Part shown: in pieces, positions 28,599 through 37,600 of the stretch | How positions within the stretch are numbered: position 1 is the first letter of the stretch | Layout: each line of letters opens with the position of its first letter | Source of the DNA: Escherichia coli | GTDB taxonomy: Bacteria > Pseudomonadota > Gammaproteobacteria > Enterobacterales > Enterobacteriaceae | Length of the DNA stretch: 64,000 nucleotides | Direction: 5' to 3' (one strand) | Assembly (NCBI RefSeq): GCF_030013595.1 | Contig: NZ_CP122768.1 | Notes under the pieces: model-generated | The model's database searches: none | Told to the model about the DNA's origin: nothing | The model's input: the letters and a program-made list of their open reading frames with translations, nothing else | Program-made: the position numbers and the translations under genes

Positions 28599-29341
28599 AT
28601 GATACAGAGTCGAAAAATCAAAGAGTTAAAAATTTTTCTTGGAATAAATGTCTTAAAATCGTACACGAAAAATCAATGAATTACATAACATTAAAGAAGA
28701 ATATTCCAAGCCTTCTTGAGGCTACCACCTGTTTTCAGGTGTCATTCAGACGTGATTTGCCCCAGATTGGGAAAGCACGCTTTTTTCTCAGCTATCGCCC
28801 TCTTATTTTGTCGTTACATTTCTTTTTGCACTCTAATGATTAATTTACAATAATAATATCGGTAATTATTGAGTAATAATAAATTGATTATTGCAAATGT
28901 AATTTAATTCCATCTTCGCGTTATATTCCAATCTTTAATCTCCGCATGGAACAAGTTGCATGCGTGACTATATTAAGACAACTTATAACCACCGAAACAT
29001 TTGCTTTGCAAGCAAAAACAGTGACCATTGACTCTAAGAAAATTCCGATCTATTGTTAGGGTCATCAAAGTTACTTAACAGTATTCCGAAATGAAAATAC
29101 AAAGCAAGCTAATTGTCTTATTAAACATTATTATTGCATTTATATTATTTGAGCTTTTAGCTCAAAAATTTGGTTTGAGTACATTATTTTAAAGCAAGAT
29201 AAACAATATCGGGCACTCTAGTTTTTATAATTAACAATTAAACGTCCATAAAATGTTATTTACTTTTCTTCGCTATTGTCATATCTTAATATAGTGGCTT
29301 ACGCCACTCTACTTTCATCACATTTTGTACGTTTATGTACT

Positions 29342-29372
29342 CGCCATGAAGCTCTTTCATGGCGATTTTTTA
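29342..29372 (+). terminator. intrinsic terminator in the AT-rich b-region gap
   Basis: 9-bp stem CGCCATGAA/TTCATGGCG with 5-nt loop, then TTTTTT. Confidence 0.45.
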
Positions 29373-29457
29373 TTCTTAATCCAAGAACATACTCCCTACC
29401 TATAGCAAAATCACTTTTTGAACAAAAGAATAACGTATTTAGGTAATCATTACGAAT

Positions 29458-30039
29458 TTACCCTATAGGTGCTACTGGCCATTCAATATCCGGTGCAGTT
29501 GTTGTATTAACACGGTTCAGCAACACCCGATACTTTTTCCAGGCTTCCAGCAACGAGTTTTCTTCCTCCGTTGCGATTTCCAGATCTACAGCATCCTGAA
29601 GTGGCGCAATATGCTCACTGGCTACCTGCATCAGGTTGTTTTTTGTTTCTTCCGCCTCCCGGATCCGGAACAGTTTTTCTGCTTCCGTATCCTTCACCCA
29701 GGCTGTGCCGTTCCACTTCTGAAACTCCCCTTCCGGGGATAACCAGGTGACATTTTCCGGTAATGGGCCAAGTTCAGAAATAAATAACGCGTCGCCGGAA
29801 GCCACGTCATAAACCGTTTTACCCCGATGATCTTCAACGAGATGCCACGATGACTCATCACTGTTGAAAACAGCCACGAAGCCAGCCGGAATATCTGGCG
29901 GTGCAATATCGGTACTGTTTGCTGGCAGACCTGTATGAGGCGGAATATATGCATCACCTTCACCAATAAATTCATTAGTTCCGGCCAGCAGATTATAAAT
30001 TTTTATGGTCCGTGGTTGTTCACTCATTCTGAATGCCAT
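29458..30039 (-). CDS. tfa: tail fibre assembly protein
   Basis: 193 aa, lambda Tfa-like, immediately downstream of stf. Confidence 0.85.
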
Positions 30040-33000
30040 TATGCAAGCCTCACAATATAGTTAAATGCGATGTTTTTGACGGTGTTTTCCGCGTTACCAG
30101 CAGCGTTAACGGTGATGGTGTGTCCATGTGAACCAATCGCAACCGAGTGCGTATGCGCACCAATACCTACAGTATGTGCGTGTGCACCTGCGCTTGCAGC
30201 AGTACCCGATACAGAGTGCGTATGAGCGCCTGCAGAAGAAGTGTTAACACTGTATTTAGAATAATCAGGTGATCCACTTCCCGGAGCACCTTTGGTGCCA
30301 CCTGAAACAAATGTCATCGAATGGGTATGTGCACCGGCTGAAGCAGCCGTACCGCTAACACTATGGGTATGCGCACCAGTGTTATTCGTGGATTTAGTGC
30401 CGTAATCAAACGACGATGTGGTTTTCGTCCCCAAATCCGTACTGGATACGCTGGCGCTGTGGGTGTGTGATTTAATGCCGTCCTGTTCCTGAGACAATAC
30501 GGCTCGATCACTGGCGGGCTTGCCCTTAATCGTCCAGCCACGCATATCAGGGATCACGCCTGACGGATAAGCGGCTGCAAGTTTCGGGTAAGCAGATTTG
30601 TCAAAAGTCTGCCCCTGCATCAGGGCATAACCAGACGGAACGGTATCTGATGGCCACGGGATTGGTGCGCCGACTGGGTAGCTTTCTGGTGGAAGATTTT
30701 TCGAGGTATAAACTTCTGCCCAGTCTTCCTCAAAACCATAACCGTCTCTTGAAGAACGGTAGAACAGACCACCATTTCTGTAATGCGCCTTCATCTGCAA
30801 GGTCCGGCAACTTCCGACTCCGGTATAGAAGTTAACCAGAATATAGCTGTAGCCAGAGCGGGTGACATTATAAGCGCCTGATTCGGCATTCCAGGGAACG
30901 CCACCATCCGCATCGGCATATGTATCCGTTGCCCTTCTGGCAAAAGCAGCCACATGCGCGGCGGTTAAAGTAATATCTTTGGAACCATCAAACTCAACAC
31001 CAGAAACCCGTCTTGGCGTTTGCAGCTTTGTTGCTGTTAATGCATTACCGTTCAGACTTGCGGACAGTTTGGTTCCAATAACCAGTTCGCCGGTTGCGTT
31101 ATCAATAGCAAACGGTCTTAATGTATTCCAGCTACCATAAACATCACCTTGATTGGTAAGCAGCAGGTAAGTTTTAGCGCCATCATTACGCCATAATGCA
31201 CCATACTCCCCACCTATCATTCGAATCTGATTACCACCACGCGCTACAATTTCGTCTGTGGCAAAAAGTTTTTTGCACGACAAGTTATCGTTAACGATTA
31301 ACGAATGAGACTCATAAAAACCACGCCCACTCTTAAAATCAAGGATAACGTCCGCCGCGATACATTCAGTCGCCGGATTTGTTGCCCCAAACTTATAGGT
31401 CGTATCATTAACAACGAGATCAGCACCAGGTGCGGATATTGACAGGCCATCTTCGATAAACGCAAAAACAGGGAAAGCAGCGCCATCAACATAGAACACA
31501 GAGCGCAAATCATCGCCCTTATTACTCATCATTATTGAGTGGATGGCTCGTTCATTGTTTTGATATTGCCAGAACATTCCATAAGCATAACGCCCCCTGT
31601 CAGTACAGCCACCAGGCATAACAAATCCGTTAAACTCGCAGTTATTCATCGGATCGCCTGCGGTTCGCGTTGCCGTGGTGATAATGACCCTTGATGCCAG
31701 TTCGCTTACTGAGCCAGCAGAACGCATAACAGCAACAGGGTAATATTTTCCAGATGTTGCACCTGCAGGAGCGTTAACCCGCACATAACGCATACCACGC
31801 TTATCAGCAAAGTCTGTTTTACTGACCGCGTTAATGTTGTTCAGGAAGCGTCCCTTATCGGGTATATCAGCGCCGTTCTGGTCTTTCTGCAGACGTTTCT
31901 CTGCATTGTCATAGGCTGATTTTACTGCCTTTGGCGTTGCCGCCAGCGTTTCAGACGTACTGTTGGTCGCACTGCTGAGCTGTACTACCCCCTTTTTCGT
32001 CGTGCTCGCATCCTCAAGCGCCACGGCGGACGCAATATCCTCTGCCCGTTTTGCCGCTGTCTCGGCGCGCGTTGCCGCGGATTCCGCCGTACTTTTGCTC
32101 TGTGCTGCCGCCGTCGCACTGCCAGCTGCCTCTGTCGCCTTCGTGGATGCTGTCGTGGCGCTGCCCTTCGCTGCGGACGCTTGTCTGGTCGCCTCATCTT
32201 TTGAAGCAGACGCCGATGATGCCGATGACGCCGCCGAACTGGCGGACGATGCCGCTGCCGTTTTTGAGGATTCTGCACGGGTTTCCGACGCTTTCGCGTT
32301 CGTTTCGGATGTCTTCGCTGCGGAAGCTGACCTCGCTGCTGCCGTGGCCTGCTCAGTGGCTTCGCCAGCCTTCGTTGTGGCTGTTGAAGCGGATGATGCG
32401 GCGCTTTCTGCCGATTTTCCGGCGGCGGTGGCACTGGCTGAGGCCTGCCCGGCACTTGTTGACGCGGCACTGGCAGACGACGCAGCCGCTGTTTTTGAGC
32501 CTGCCGCAGCTGAGGCGCTCTGTCCCGCTGCCGTCTCAGAAGACCTGGCGTTCGTCTCGGACGTTTTTGCCGCCTTCGCGGAATTTCCTGCCGCCGTTGC
32601 CGAGGAAGCTGCGCTACTGGCGCTCAAGGATGCGTTCGTTTCTGATGATTTCGCTGCCTCTTTTGAGGCCGCCGCATCCCGGGCTGAGGTGGCAGCTTCT
32701 GACGCCTTTGTGGTCGCTGCGGATGCAGAAGTGGCTGCAGATTTTTGTGACGCTGCCGCATTCGTTTCTGACGTTTTCGCCGCAGCGGCACTGGTGGCCG
32801 CCGCGCTTTTTGAGGACTCTGCAGCGGCAGCACTTTTTGATGCTTCAGTGGCCTTTGTTGATGCCGTTCCTGCGCTGGAAGACGCTGACTGAGCCGACGA
32901 AGCGGCCTGTCCGGCTGACGTGCTGGCTGCGCGTGCTGAGCCTGCAGCATCAGTCGCATGGGTTGCCGCCTCACGGGCAGATGTGCCGGCATCGCCGGCT

Positions 33001-33395
33001 GACTTCTTCGCGGCTGCCGTGTTCTGTGCCACCACGGACGCGTTACGCGCCACCTCTTCCACCATCAGCTCAAAACGGCGCAGTGCCTCCGGACGGGCAT
33101 CATCCTCCGTCATGGCACCGAGAAAATCATTCAGCGTACCGGGTCGGGAATCTTCATACACTGTGATAGTCCCGGCATGTGACGGCGGGAATCCTTCCAC
33201 CAACAGAATAACGCTGTACTGACCGTACTCAACGTCCATACTGTAACGCCCGGCTTCATCCGGATTTTCTGAGGCCAGCGTGTTCACCACCACCGTGGTG
33301 CTGTTACGTTTTGCTTTCAGCTGGATTGTGCAGTTCTGTACCGGTTTTCCTGTGCCGTCTTTCAGTACACCTGAAATCTTTACTGCCATATTCAC
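30039..33395 (-). CDS. stf: side tail fibre protein with long Ala/Ser/Thr-rich repeat region
   Basis: 1118 aa; lambda Stf-like N-terminus, ~350 aa low-complexity tract, C-terminal repeated HTHS motifs. Confidence 0.85.
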
Positions 33396-33453
33396 CCCAC
33401 AAAAAAGCCCGCCTGAACCGGCGGGCTGTCATAACACTGTGTTACCTGGCTAA

Positions 33454-34053
33454 TCAGAATTTATAACCGACACCCACGATGAACCCGTCAGTGCGCCAGT
33501 CACCGCTGCCGGAGCCTTCATAAGCGACGTCAACGGCCACGGATTCGGTCGGGTTAAACTGCACGCCAGCTCCCCACGCCAGAGACGTGTTGCTGTGGCG
33601 ACCGTCATCACTTCCGGTCAGCACATCGTGCGTTTTCCCCTTGTTGTCAGTTACGCGGATATAATCTCCGGAGAAAGTCGACACACGGCTGTAAGCCATA
33701 CCCGCCATCGCATACGCGCTGAACCATTCATTCACGCGCACAGACGGCCCCGCCATCACGCTGAACCAGCGGTTACGCACGGAATCTTCATGCCAGCGGG
33801 TATCGCTGTAATGCGTTTTTTGCTCATCTTCAGCGTTGGTATAACTGAATGACGTAATCAGCCCCAGCGTGTCCGTAAACTCATAACGGTATTTCACGTT
33901 AATCCCGTTCAGATTATCGCTGCCGGGAGCGTTCGTACGGGCATGAAGATACCCTGCGCTCAGTGTGGCCTGCTGCTCAGACGCCCATGCAGGCGCACCG
34001 GATACGGCCAGACAGATGGCTGCGGACAAAATGGCTGCACAAACTTTACGCAT
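33454..34053 (-). CDS. lom: Lom/Ail-family outer membrane protein
   Basis: 199 aa; signal peptide; C-terminus YEGSGSGDWRTDGFIVGVGYKF as in lambda Lom. Confidence 0.85.
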   Translation of the reverse strand: MRKVCAAILSAAICLAVSGAPAWASEQQATLSAGYLHARTNAPGSDNLNGINVKYRYEFTDTLGLITSFSYTNAEDEQKTHYSDTRWHEDSVRNRWFSVMAGPSVRVNEWFSAYAMAGMAYSRVSTFSGDYIRVTDNKGKTHDVLTGSDDGRHSNTSLAWGAGVQFNPTESVAVDVAYEGSGSGDWRTDGFIVGVGYKF

Positions 34054-34072
34054 AATTACCTCTCGCTTTTCT

Positions 34073-34101
34073 GCAATAAAAAAGGCGCCATTTCTGGCGC
34101 C
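34073..34101 (-). terminator. intrinsic terminator downstream of J
   Basis: minus-strand hairpin GGCGCCAGAAATGGCGCC followed by TTTTTTATT. Confidence 0.5.
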
Positions 34102-34120
34102 CGTATATGGGTTATAAAAT

Positions 34121-37100
34121 TCAGCTGATACTGATGCCTGCGGTGGCTTTCTTCATCACCACAACCAGCAAATCGCTGATACTTGCTGTGGGATACCAGT
34201 TATTTACCAGCCATGCTGACACCGAAAACTCCAGTGTCATGTGACCGTGACCGGCAGGCATATCAATAACACCACTGTAAATCAGCGTATTATCCAGCGC
34301 GGTACGGTTATAAATTTCAGCACCGTTTTTCCGTACTATCAGACGGCATGAGGAGTAAATATCAGTATGCTCTTTCTCATGTTTAGCGCCGCTGAATGCC
34401 ACCGCCGGAATAACAATCTGCCGGTCAAACGGCTGATCGTCATAAACCCTGACGGTGATGGTCCCTGATGGCCACCGTTCCGGTGCACGGGAGTCCCGGG
34501 GGAAAGCTTTGCCCACTGTTTTAACGAGATCGCCTTCAATCTGGTTCGCGGACAGTTTTCCCAGAACCCGACAGTTCTCGTTAATCGTGACGTTGTTGAG
34601 CGTCCCGGAGTTCGCATTCACGTTACCGCTGATATCGGCATTTTTCGCCGTCAGCCGCCCGTCCGGTGTCAGGGAAAATGCCGGTGGATTTCCGCCGCTG
34701 GTAATGGTGGGAGCCGTCAGGCGTTTCAGGAACACGTCGTTCATGAATATCTGATCGCCCTGACCAACAAACATCGGCTTTGTGTTGCCATTCGCAGGAT
34801 TAATCATCGCAATCCGGTCAGCAGCCAGAAGCACCTGACTCTGCATACCTGCTGGCGTATTCTCAATACCGGCTCCGATACCCGCAATATAAAGGCGTCC
34901 GTCCTTCATCTGCTGCAGTTTCACGGCCCACATGCTGTTCAGGTTATTATTTGTATCAACCTGAACTTTCTGTATCTGCTGGATTGCCGCGCTCTGATTT
35001 TCCAGTTTCTTATTGACGGTCTGTGTGATTTCATTGCTGACATCCGTAATGGACGTCCTGATTTCAGCCAGGTCAGGCGCAAGCTGATCGTTATCAATCT
35101 GCGTCCACAGCTCCTGAGCCAGATGGGTTTTCCCTATCTCGCCTTTGAAAAAATCCAGATAGCCGGATGCGTCATCACTCGGCTGACCGACAGCCTCCAC
35201 GAATGCCGATTTGCCAACAGTGTTCACACTGCGAACGTAAAAATAATAATCATGGCCCGGCTTAATATTGATACTGGCAGCTATCCAGTACAGCGCCGTA
35301 CCAAGATAGCGCGCTGTGGTTTCAACCTGCCTGATATCCGCAATCCGCTTTTCCGAGAACCAGAACTCAAACTGTACCGTCGGATCATAAACGGCAAGAT
35401 GCGGCGTGGCGGTTATCTGAAAATAGCCCGGCGTCAGCTCAATCCGCGACGGTGCTGCCGGTGCGGCAATCCGGAACGATACCGATGCCGGATCGCCCTG
35501 CTGTCCCCACGCATTTACCGCCCGGACTGTCAGCCTGTAGTTCCCCAGCGCCAGCTGCCTGAAGCGGTATGTGGTTTCCGTCGTCCGGGCCGTGCTGACC
35601 AGCCGCTCACTGCCGTCATCGGCGGCCACGGTCAGGCGAAGCATAAAGCTCACACCCTTCACCACCTTCGGCGTGTCCCAGCGCGCCAGCACCTGATACT
35701 CCCCACTGTCTGCGGTGACTTCTGCGGTCAGGTGCTGCACCGCTGGCGGCGTGACACCATTCACCGTGCCGCTCTGGTCGCCGTCAAAGTGCGCCCCGTT
35801 ATCCACGATGGCTTCTTTCTCCGGTACATGCTGCACGGCAGTGATGGCATACGTGCCGTCATCGTTCTCACGGATACTCACACAGCGGAACAGGCGCTGG
35901 CGCAACGTCGGCAGCTTCAGCCCCCACACGCTGTATTCTGCAACGCCGTCAGGAACACGGCTCACTTTCACCTTCACACCGTCGGTGACGGACTGAACCT
36001 CCACGCTGACCGGATTGCCACTTCCGTCAACCAGGCTTATCAGCGTGGTACCGGAGGATGGCAGCGTGATTTCACGGTCGAGCGTCAGCGTCCGGGTCTG
36101 GCTGTTCACCGCCAGCACGCGCCCGCCGGTGCTGATACCGGCATAGTCATCATCGCAGATTTCAATGACATCGCCCGGCACATGGCGAAGCCCTTCTGCG
36201 CCCACGCTGAAATCCACGGTCTGCGTTTCCAGCAGTTCCGTTTTAATCAGCCACAGCCCGGCGCGGTGTGCCTGCCCCCGGCTGGTACAGCCAAAGGCAT
36301 CCATCTTCGTAACATTACGACCGTAACGGGCAATGGCCTGCGTATCTTCAACAAGCTCTGTCGCCGTCTCCCAGCCGTTATCCGGGTCAATCCAGTTCAC
36401 CTCAACGGCATTATGGCGGTCCTTCAGGGCGCTGAAGCTGTAGCGGAACGGCGCGCCATCATCCGGCATCACCACATTACTGCGGTTATAGGTCCACACC
36501 TTATCCGACGGTCGGTCCTGCACGAACGTCAGCGTCTGCCCGTTCCATACCGGCATACAGCGCATCGCCGAGCAGAAATCGCTGAGCACATCCCACGCCT
36601 TACGTTGTGTGGTCAGCCAGGCATTACAGGTGATGCGCGGCTCCGTGCCGCCAAAACCGTCCGGCACCGACTGGTCGCAGTACTGGCCGATGACATACAG
36701 CGCCCATTTATCCACATCTGCCGCACCAAGACGTTTCCCCATGCCGTAGCGCGGATGGGTCAGCATATCCCACAGACACCAGGCCATGTTGTTGCTGTAT
36801 GCTGGCTTAAACGTTCCATCCCAGATACCGCTGTATTGCCGCGTCTGCGGGTTATAGTTCGACGGCACCTGCAGAATGCGCCCGCGCAGATGATAATTAC
36901 GGCTCACCTGCTGGCTGCCGAACTGCTCCGAGTCCACCTGCACGCCGACCAGTGCCGTGTTCGGGTAGCACTGTTTCACATCTATAATTTCGGTGTATGA
37001 CGACCAGAGCGTTTTGTTCTGCAGCTGGTCTGTGGTGCTGTCCGGCGTCATCCTGCGCATCCGGATACTGAACGGGCGCGGCGGCAGGTTATCCACCACC

Positions 37101-37600
37101 ACCGAGGCCAGATACTGCGAGGTGGTTTTGCCCTTAATGGTGATGTCTTTTTCCGTCACCCAGCCACCGTTACGTTGTATCTGAACCAGCAGGCGGACTT
37201 CCGATGGATTCCTGTCACCCTTTGAGGTGGTTTCCACCAGTGCCTGCACACCGAAGGTAAAGCGCAGTCGGTCGATGTTTGCCGACGTGATGGCGCGGGT
37301 GATCGGCGTGTCGTATTTCACTTCCGTACCCAGCACCGTCTCGGAGCCGGAGGATTCAAATCCCTCCGGCGGAGTCTGCTCCTGCTCACCAGCCCGGAAC
37401 ACCACCGTGACACCGGCGATGTTGGTATTCCCCTCACTGTCCAGCACCGGCGTACTGTTCAGCAGCACGCTTTTTAATCCATCCACCGGACCTTCAATCG
37501 GCCCTTCACTGATGGCATCAATCACACTCAGCAACTGCGTGGATTTCAGGTTGTCCTTCGCTTCGCGCGGGGTATGCCCCTTACTGCTGCCTTTACCCAT
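34121..37600 (-). CDS. J: tail tip host-specificity protein J
   Basis: 1159 aa; N-terminal ~900 aa near-identical to remembered lambda J; C-terminal part divergent. Confidence 0.9.

Follow-up and report, generated by a model that had tools for sequence, protein, structure and literature searches.

A strict heptad tract in the StfR-like side tail fibre of an Escherichia coli prophage, predicted to form a proximal coiled-coil shaft of the lambda type

The coiled-coil shafts of several phage tail fibres have been described. Yu et al. (2025; PMC12617516) have studied Ur-lambda by cryo-EM, cryo-ET and AlphaFold3 and have reported trimeric side fibres with a 12-mer collar, gpStf being divided into a collar (residues 1–91), a linker (92–101), a proximal coiled coil (102–393) and a hinge (394–422). 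Four such trimeric fibres on the virion speed adsorption through OmpC, an effect known for Ur-lambda only (PMC12617516). Ghosh et al. (2012; PMC3368898) have shown that the PCoil domain, which follows PF08400, is alpha-helical by CD and trimeric by SEC-MALLS, melts at about 49–52 °C and has an Ala/Ser heptad with lengths that differ by multiples of seven. This was the only relevant paper found in a literature search for heptad-number variation in tail fibres. A PCoil-type domain was also seen in Stx2 phage 1717. The Gifsy-2 Stf, PY54 gp25, Actinobacillus pPE4 gp69 and the Seuratvirus/Nonagvirus lateral fibres likewise carry a PF08400 collar followed by a helical segment, which ranges from a few heptads (KurtStettler, Tlacuache) up to 36 (Gifsy-2); outside the E. 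coli/Salmonella lambdoid lineage, PF08400-headed fibres have a conventional composition (L, I, V, E, K, Q). Trimeric coiled coils of the alanine-zipper kind also exist, for example the Ala-rich part of Braun's lipoprotein Lpp-56, a parallel trimer with an Ala core that forms a thin rod. Lpp shares no homology with the tract described here and has 56 residues against 357; a Ser at d, as in the tract, is unusual.

The gene studied here lies in a 64,000-nucleotide stretch of E. coli DNA (the window). Its ORF, at 30039–33395 on the minus strand, had been called a side tail fibre in the initial annotation, and the Pfam domains PF08400, Collar and Phage_fiber, together with the J-lom-stf-tfa synteny, bear this out; Gp34_trimer is present as well, and a Caudo_TAP chaperone lies directly downstream. 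On these sequence features the ORF is a side tail fibre of the StfR/lambda-Stf type. Lambda has the same gene order, and StfR of the K-12 Rac prophage, with the PGAP family 'prophage tail fiber N-terminal domain-containing protein', has both this order and the same series of domains. Nucleotide identity to K-12 StfR is about 97% across the gene and 95.3% in the tract, the 1203-nt span of which is equal in the two; in total length the K-12-type gene exceeds it by 12 nt, which are accounted for outside the tract. Over its full length and in a single alignment, the gene is 98% identical to one annotated stfR in the complete genome of E. coli ST12468, and since this is the closest complete-genome allele, the gene is by sequence an ordinary allelic variant of StfR. 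The coordinates are collected in Table 1.

Table 1. Features of the stf locus in the window and of the protein domains encoded there.
Feature	Position	Strand	Remarks
tfa, tail-fibre assembly chaperone	29458..30039	-	PF02413, E 1e-42; start overlaps stf stop (TAATG)
stf (StfR-like side tail fibre), CDS	30039..33389	-	1116 aa + stop; listed ORF from GTG 33395 is 2 codons longer
Distal mosaic, aa 495-1116	30042..31907	-	Pfam Gp34_trimer, Collar, Phage_fiber; PDB 4uxe/5nxf, 8ju3, 2xgf
Conserved hinge/junction motif, aa 462-494	31908..32006	-	33 residues, kept in 69/106 distinct related alleles
309 aa ORF	31963..32892	+	By-product, not a gene; few stops expected from composition alone
Heptad tract, aa 105-461	32007..33077	-	51 in-phase heptads x-A-x-x-S-A-x, no phase break
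371 aa ORF (frame -3)	32051..33166	+	By-product, not a gene; CTA absent from tract
Segment between collar and heptads	33078..33116	-	Homologous to lambda linker 92-101
N-terminal collar (tail-attachment) domain, aa 1-91	33117..33389	-	PF08400, E 9e-72; limits after Yu 2025
GC-rich hairpin + T-run between lom and stf	33401..33427	-	Adjoins stf ribosome-binding site upstream; read from sequence
lom	33454-34053	-	Ail_Lom, E 1e-125
Central tail fibre gene J	34121-37600	-	From ORF list; upstream context spans 33454..37600

The length of 1118 aa first given for the protein holds for the ORF counted in codons from GTG. This GTG has no ribosome-binding site and sits right behind the hairpin and T-run, the ATG at 33389 has GGGGTGA just upstream, and the solved chain of the lambda Stf N-domain begins MAVKISG; for these reasons, the ATG is probably the true start, which would give a protein of 1116 aa.

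The initial annotation had drawn attention to a run of about 350 residues rich in Ala, Ser and Thr, and such a tract is real, with 72–76% A/S/T. A block of 342 residues (aa 121–462, GTG numbering) holds 130 A, 77 S and 41 T (72.5%), only 13 Gly and no C, F, M, P, W or Y, and the maximal-scoring A/S/T segments span 243–362 aa at 72–77%. At lag 7, residues agree with a frequency of 0.42, and 500 shuffles give about 0.20 (z about 10.7); lags that are multiples of 7, up to 56, each have z of 8–10, and the remaining lags are at or below zero. Among the 49 A/S/T heptads (aa 119–461), which stay in phase throughout, Ala occupies the second position (a) in 47 and the sixth (e) in 34, and Ser the fifth (d) in 37. 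The heptad score exceeds zero only from about aa 105–112, and bulkier core residues stand at the two ends of the coil; the start has F106, M109, V113 and V120 as well as Asn at d116 and d123, and the end has I452 and V456. A higher-order repeat period was sought in the tract and none was found, the heptads being equally similar across lags. The tract is a strict heptad run, predicted to be a coiled coil, and not loose low complexity; 'degenerate repeats', as it had been described, understates its order, the units being only about 43–46% identical in the DNA and the register unbroken in the protein.

By analogy with its homologues, the tract is predicted to form a rod about 53 nm long, an alpha-helical coiled coil of three chains. 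AF2 run on the single sequence as a monomer gave one continuous helix over aa 98–482 with a mean pLDDT of 70.8, and an artificial three-copy construct with Gly-Ser linkers gave three helices (pTM 0.39) with insignificant Foldseek matches to the PDB. A flexible, intrinsically disordered low-complexity tether in place of a rigid coiled coil would suit the A/S/T-rich make-up with almost no large hydrophobic residues, an AF2 confidence that is just moderate and a fibre base that has been described as somewhat flexible. Disorder, however, requires neither a heptad phase held over 357 residues nor whole-heptad indels, and the tract is without Pro and has little Gly. The homologous domain has a helical CD spectrum, melts cooperatively and reversibly and has the mass of a trimer, and lambda fibres appear in tomograms as straight hinged rods. 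A disordered tether is accordingly unlikely, and the tract is better read as the proximal coiled-coil shaft of a lambda-type side tail fibre, a reading to which, with its full mechanism, we assign a probability of roughly 0.85. Against this reading, a core of Ala and Ser is only weakly hydrophobic, so that the stability of such a rod is argued by analogy with the homologues, and the pLDDT is only about 70.

Comparison with described fibres places the tract closely. The N-domain of Ur-lambda gpStf (774 aa) is 92% identical to the one here (E 2e-51 over aa 1–94 against PDB 9e7m/9mgh), the linker is alike, and the heptad register starts from aa 105 in both. In both proteins the heptads are closed by TTxKG[IV]VQLSS...AATPKAVK and the fibre ends in a T4 gp37-like tip. 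Lambda Stf differs in having 36 heptads (aa 105–356) against 51, being 15 heptads, 105 aa and about 15.6 nm shorter, and in lacking some 240 extra distal residues, the gp34-like domain among them; its tract DNA matches over no more than the initial 618 of the 1203 nt, with an identity of 85.8%. In the EHEC prophage collagen-like fibres EPclA/B, PCoil also follows PF08400 and consists of Ala/Ser heptads almost without Leu and Ile, as here, whereas it has about 20 heptads, is more acidic (A-x-x-A/S-x-x-S with Glu) and runs into collagen G-X-Y repeats where the present tract runs into the hinge motif and a gp37-like tip. [quoted passage not shown] The shaft is already described in these homologues, the present allele is ordinary and its tract is of the commonest length; parallel trimeric packing, the physical length and a spacer function are inferred for the Stf studied here.

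The motif that closes the proximal rod, KG[IV]VQLSS...AATPKAVK, is present at aa 462–494, with its counterpart in lambda at 357–385; the stretch KG[IV]V[QK]LSS...AATPKAVK aligns with lambda residues 361–385, which fall at the end of the proximal domain, just ahead of the hinge (Yu et al., 2025; PMC12617516). The motif also matches the Mu fibre protein S (5yvq). After it, at least 14 different distal signatures occur among related alleles. Here the distal mosaic combines a T4 gp34-like trimerisation domain (aa 663–762) with a segment resembling Mu S, and it ends in a receptor-binding tip of the T4 gp37 type (aa 902–1116; E 1e-86 against the T4 gp37 structure 2xgf) that carries His-rich GAHTHS repeats. 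Similarity of the tip suggests that the receptor is probably OmpC or LPS.

Both fibre length and the receptor module had been proposed to vary, and a comparison of stf alleles across relatives supports both. Of 69 distinct hinge-bearing IMG/VR alleles, 54 (78%) are of modal length, 12 are shorter by 15 heptads and one each by 2, 16 and 31.4; a finished genome with 31 heptads fewer was also found. From anchor to anchor, the differences among relatives are -14, -105, -112 and -217 aa, that is, -2, -15, -16 and -31 heptads, so that the repeat length is not invariant. Four of the five distinct length classes are integral in heptads (binomial P about 0.002 at 1/7). Strict register among alleles is not absolute, because one metagenome contig (L074) differs by 31 heptads and 3 residues and is off register. 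An apparent gain of 132 nt in another allele (H80) was considered as a tract expansion and rejected, the extra sequence lying outside the tract and the hinge anchor at its modal position. Alleles with a common N-terminus and tract differ in their distal receptor modules, the junctions lying at the hinge motif or within the tract; homology to relatives breaks at gene nt 356, 848 and 1466–1565, and one distal signature, AANDNANG, is found with 51, 36 and 35 heptads. The tract had been called expanded, which is so only in relation to lambda; its length is the modal one, and the 1203-nt span is the same in nearly all sampled complete-genome matches, K-12 StfR included.

Several length classes among relatives, and short direct repeats that lie mostly 21-nt multiples apart, could point to a contingency locus in which slippage or unequal crossing-over between the tract's own units often alters fibre length. 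Against this, Tandem Repeats Finder reported just two trivial arrays of 25–30 nt, and the DNA identity of heptad units stays at about 43–46% at every lag, which argues that there have been no recent duplications. The best internal repeats are 26–46 nt long at 76–88% identity, and deletion junctions have microhomology of only 0–8 nt. As regards the two properties expected of a VNTR, head-to-tail near-identical DNA units are absent from the tract (unit identity about 45%), and copy-number differences between closely related strains were not found, with one length in most distinct hinge-bearing alleles and a recurrent span in complete genomes. The hypermutable-repeat reading is largely refuted and we regard it as very unlikely. 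Of the proposal that the tract is recombination-prone, what stands is that modules are exchanged and shorter alleles exist; a slippage-prone repeat is not what underlies it.

An assembly artefact, with the tract collapsed or inflated, also has to be weighed. Draft assemblies routinely end contigs within the tract, as in 6/6 draft-assembly places inspected, and tract-carrying genomes have a median of 2 matching places and up to 8, complete E. coli genomes containing roughly 7,800 in all. When proteins were searched with the N-domain as query, all hits were truncated 'partial' entries, which gave no measure of tract length but point to assembly breaks, with a short-target bias of the search being possible. 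In the present case, by contrast, the gene aligns end to end to a complete genome, the same tract span recurs in others, and the reading frame and the heptad phase are intact, so that a wrong length is highly improbable. As to the suggestion that assemblies tend to collapse here, drafts do break inside the tract, but the window carries no sign of collapse. Short-read E. coli assemblies fragment predictably at this place because several prophages share the N-terminus and the tract.

The tract had also been said to leave both strands open, which is partly correct: of the alternative frames within it, +2 (2 stops), -2 (1) and -3 (0) are open or nearly so, and +3 (10) and -1 (25) are not. Two plus-strand ORFs of 309 and 371 aa result, and the lambda and PY54 records annotate ORFs of this kind, the lambda equivalent of the 309-aa ORF being orf206b. 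One or more real overlapping genes might seem indicated by frame -3, which has 0 stops; permuting synonymous codons gives an expectation of 7.4 +/- 2.2, and 0 was reached in 0/5000 permutations. The effect in frame -3 comes down to missing CTA at NCT|A codon junctions (in E. coli both CTA and TAG are rare as a rule), the remaining near-open frames agree with the compositional expectation, and the predicted products are featureless and rich in A/D/V/F or R/P/Q. An antisense gene in frame -3 was rejected because the frame is not conserved among relatives, 1–4 stops being present in 52/60 distinct related tracts. Overlapping genes have next to no likelihood, and annotators should not call these ORFs genes; lambda orf206b and PY54 ORF26 are by-products of the same kind.

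Under the coiled-coil reading, three Stf chains would be anchored to the tail by their N-terminal collar domains. Past the short linker they would wind together in parallel as a single alpha-helical coiled coil of three strands and 51 heptads, which at 0.148 nm per residue would measure about 53 nm. Small residues would fill almost the whole core, with Ala at a and e and Ser at d, and bulkier residues would bound both ends. The rod would stop at the conserved hinge motif, beyond which the mosaic distal part would present the gp37-like receptor-binding tip, and the downstream Tfa chaperone may help this tip to fold. The rod would serve as a spacer and determine the reach of the tip from the tail. 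Together, the N-terminus and the tract make up a block of about 1.4 kb with 90–97% identity among co-resident prophages. Because this block is shared and the heptads are structurally equivalent, recombination in or just past the tract could swap distal modules and occasionally drop whole heptads while leaving the fibre intact.

A more tentative proposal, and one we consider rather doubtful, is that the Ala/Ser core is an evolved recombination-tolerant adaptor and that the heptad number (20, 36 or 51) is a tunable ruler for reach, independent of the receptor module. As the heptads are interchangeable, an in-register crossover between co-resident prophages, anywhere in the tract, would yield an assembly-competent fibre; and since junction microhomology is only 0–8 nt, selection rather than mechanism would filter the products to whole heptads. 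As a discovery the tract carries little weight, being the known shaft of lambda-type side fibres in an ordinary StfR allele. The occurrence of 20 to 51 heptads in apparently intact fibre genes means that rod length could be varied by whole heptads, and the hinge motif and in-register positions of the rod are suggested as candidate fusion points for fibre engineering.

The open reading frame at 30039–33395 (−), which encodes the side tail fibre Stf, counts 1118 codons from a GTG. As this GTG lacks a ribosome-binding site and falls right after a GC-rich hairpin and T-run, while GGGGTGA precedes the ATG two codons further on (33389) and the solved chain of Ur-lambda Stf begins with MAVKISG, the protein is taken as 1116 aa from the ATG, and residues are numbered accordingly. 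The hairpin looks like an intrinsic terminator ahead of the fibre genes. The genes follow the lambda order, with J and lom upstream and a Caudo_TAP chaperone gene (tfa) downstream; the stf stop overlaps the tfa start (TAATG) at 30039, an arrangement suggesting that translation of fibre and chaperone is coupled. Besides the N-terminal domain, Stf carries the Pfam domains Gp34_trimer, Collar, and Phage_fiber, and a structure search returned no solved structure covering aa 95–440. From end to end, the gene is 98% identical to one annotated as stfR in a complete E. coli genome, and stf was matched in 5174 of 5426 complete genomes, the median number of places in each being 3. In a related prophage of E. 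coli R8 (NZ_CP107172), a gene for a macro domain-containing protein (locus L084, 5731–6633) lies between stf and tfa, an unusual insertion there.

Features of Stf and its surroundings in the window
Feature	Position	Strand	Remarks
Hairpin and T-run, GC-rich, agcccgccggttcaggcgggctttttt	33401–33427	(−)	between lom and stf, immediately 5' of the stf ribosome-binding site
phage_tail_N (PF08400)	Stf aa 1–134		Pfam, E 9e-72
Ur-lambda Stf collar (9e7m/9mgh)	Stf aa 1–94		solved-structure match
Mu fibre S	Stf aa 441–521 and 813–907		solved-structure match
T4 gp34	Stf aa 706–777		solved-structure match
T4 gp37 tip	Stf aa 902–1116		solved-structure match, E 1e-86
AT-rich stretch	28600–29450		29–33% GC, just downstream of tfa
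Region annotated in relatives as AraC-family regulator and IS integrase-core fragment	27000–30100		looks like cargo at the prophage end
tRNA-Thr(tgt) and tRNA-Asn(gtt)	56080–56235	(−)	adjacent genes

The Ala/Ser/Thr-rich tract reported in the initial annotation is present as described: a 342-residue block contains 130 Ala, 77 Ser, and 41 Thr (72.5%) and no C, F, M, P, W, or Y, and maximal-scoring A/S/T segments span 243–362 aa at 72–77%. The tract is richer in GC (61–64%) than most of the distal stf sequence (44–51%). The sequence is not the degenerate low complexity that had been assumed. At lag 7, residue identity reaches 0.42 vs ~0.20 in shuffles (z = 10.7), all multiples of 7 up to lag 56 give z = 8–10, and other lags do not exceed expectation. 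Written in rows of seven, aa 105–461 keep one register through 51 heptads, and a position-specific scoring walk along the tract detected no phase shift anywhere. In the A/S/T heptads (aa 119–461), Ala occupies position 2 in 47/49, Ser position 5 in 37/49, and Ala position 6 in 34/49. Taking these positions as a, d, and e, the core would consist of Ala and Ser. Bulkier core residues occur in the first heptads (F106, M109, V113, and V120), together with Asn at d (N116 and N123), and the last heptads contain I452 and V456. Asn at d is characteristic of trimeric coiled coils.

AlphaFold2 modelling of aa 95–504 as a single-sequence monomer predicted one continuous helix (aa 98–482, mean pLDDT 70.8), and an artificial Gly-Ser-linked triple construct, meant to probe trimer packing, was predicted as three helices. 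Yu et al. (2025, PMC12617516) have studied Ur-lambda gpStf by cryo-EM, cryo-ET, and AlphaFold3, and have described a collar domain (1–91), a flexible linker (92–101), a proximal coiled coil (102–393), a hinge (394–422), and a distal part; the four fibres are trimers, with N-domains assembled into a 12-mer collar. For fibres of EHEC prophages, Ghosh et al. (2012, PMC3368898) have reported a homologous domain, PCoil, which comes after PF08400. Its low-complexity Ala/Ser/Glu sequence has a period of seven residues; CD showed an alpha-helical domain that melts reversibly near 49–52 °C, SEC-MALLS showed trimers, and its alleles vary in length in multiples of seven. Together, the two studies settle the domain type: the tract is this same domain, longer and purer in Ala/Ser. 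At 0.148 nm per residue, its 357 residues would extend ~53 nm. More distant PF08400 fibres have helical segments of a few to ~20 heptads with conventional composition. In Stx2 phage 1717 (L085, 4501–5814), ~20 acidic Ala/Ser heptads of a PF08400 fibre run straight into collagen-like G-X-Y repeats, the EPcl architecture of Ghosh et al. (2012, PMC3368898).

The tract had also been called expanded. This is true relative to lambda, whose heptads (aa 105–356) number 36, as do those of Gifsy-2, so that the window allele has exactly 15 more; it does not hold within its own population. Using the N-domains of the window and lambda, 111 IMG/VR loci were fetched, of which 106 were distinct and 69 reached the hinge motif (aa 462–494). 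The hinge anchor (KG[IV]VQLSS) was exactly at the window position in 54/69; the remaining alleles were shorter, 12 of them by 105 aa and three by 14, 112, and 220 aa, respectively. Of 5426 complete E. coli genomes, 3590 contained 80% or more of the 1203-nt tract query, and among 60 records sampled at even intervals essentially all near-full-length matches were without net indel, including stfR of K-12 BW25113. The modal allele is thus the one with 51 heptads.

Tract length nevertheless varies among relatives, so that the constant length which would have refuted the initial annotation is not seen. Alleles shorter by 2 (L030), 15 (lambda type and others), 16 (L073), and 31 heptads (finished chromosome CP025869) were found; in the 15-heptad class the deletions align to three separate sites, but repeats make their placement ambiguous. 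One metagenome contig (L074) differs by 31 heptads plus 3 residues, leaving a 4-residue stutter. Whole-heptad differences thus occur in 4/5 distinct length classes (binomial P ~0.002 at 1/7). Such quantisation could come from repeat-mediated crossing-over, and most direct repeats in the tract lie a multiple of 21 nt apart; they are, however, short and imperfect, and deletion junctions have only 0–8 nt of microhomology and 38–60% local similarity. A filter keeping the coiled-coil register is therefore the more likely explanation. The heptad DNA units are old and diverged, 43–46% identical at every heptad lag; a search among them detected no higher-order period, and Tandem Repeats Finder returned nothing relevant on the tract. 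Together with the junctions, this largely rules out a slippage-prone repeat.

The suggestion that the region is recombination-prone holds in part, since distal module exchange is clear. At least 14 distal signatures follow AATPKAVK behind the same N-terminus and tract; AANDNANG occurs with 51, 36, and 35 heptads, AAYDLANA with 51 and 20, and SAYDNAEK with 51 and 49. The hinge motif is missing in 37/106 distinct alleles, and the complete ones examined exit the rod early into unrelated distal domains, for example at heptad ~30 (…ASEN|KAKEYLDKVGG) or ~32 (…AKSAA|DALNYRNQAQ). At the nucleotide level, relatives repeatedly cease to be homologous at the same points: nt 356, where the tract starts; nt 848, within it; and nt 1466–1565, past the hinge. 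The shared block of ~1.4 kb, 90–97% identical and present in carrier genomes in 2 copies at the median and 8 at most, is the obvious substrate for homologous exchange between prophages.

Both strands of the tract had been noted as open. Stops in frames +2, +3, −1, −2, and −3 number 2, 10, 25, 1, and 0, and those in +2 and −2 match prediction from amino-acid sequence and codon usage. Frame −3 has none vs 7.4 ± 2.2 expected, a value never reached in 5000 synonymous permutations. It is open because CTA is wholly absent from the coding strand at 32007–33077 (1071 nt): no codon starting with A comes after any of the 30 that end in CT or TT (27 NCT), and NCT|A junctions number 0 vs ~7.4 expected. 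The absence may reflect general CTA/TAG avoidance. A conserved antisense gene in frame −3 is ruled out by the 1–4 stops in 52/60 distinct related tracts. Hypothetical proteins are annotated opposite the heptad tract in lambda (orf206b; L081 2707–3327; NC_001416 20147–20767, complement) and PY54 (ORF26; L087 5052–5315); like the plus-strand frames of the window, both appear to be by-products of composition. Phages mEp332 (H107) and PhiR30_1 (H108) matched 1202 nt of the 1203-nt query, and mEp332 has two hypothetical proteins annotated there; its stf may be frameshifted, as it is in laboratory lambda PaPa.

Assemblies were expected to collapse at the tract, and draft contigs do break there, although no assembly problem is indicated in the window itself, where frame, heptad phase, and span agree with complete genomes. 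An N-domain protein search, which may favour short targets, returned 120 clusters of 113–237 aa, mostly labelled partial, several with hundreds to thousands of members. Six places inspected in draft E. coli (L092–L097) are contigs of 0.7–2.5 kb that take in the end of J, cross lom, and enter stf, with edges at ~aa 217–226, inside the tract. This is a recurrent assembly-graph break common to many genomes; short-read fragmentation is expected at a segment common to several prophages. Overall, the initial annotation was right on length variation, module exchange, and assembly breaks, and off on population-level expansion, slippage, and degeneracy, the tract being a strict coiled coil. The sighting was correct; domain and gene are both known, and the allele is a common one. 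The uniform Ala/Ser heptad may serve as a recombination-tolerant, length-tunable adaptor.
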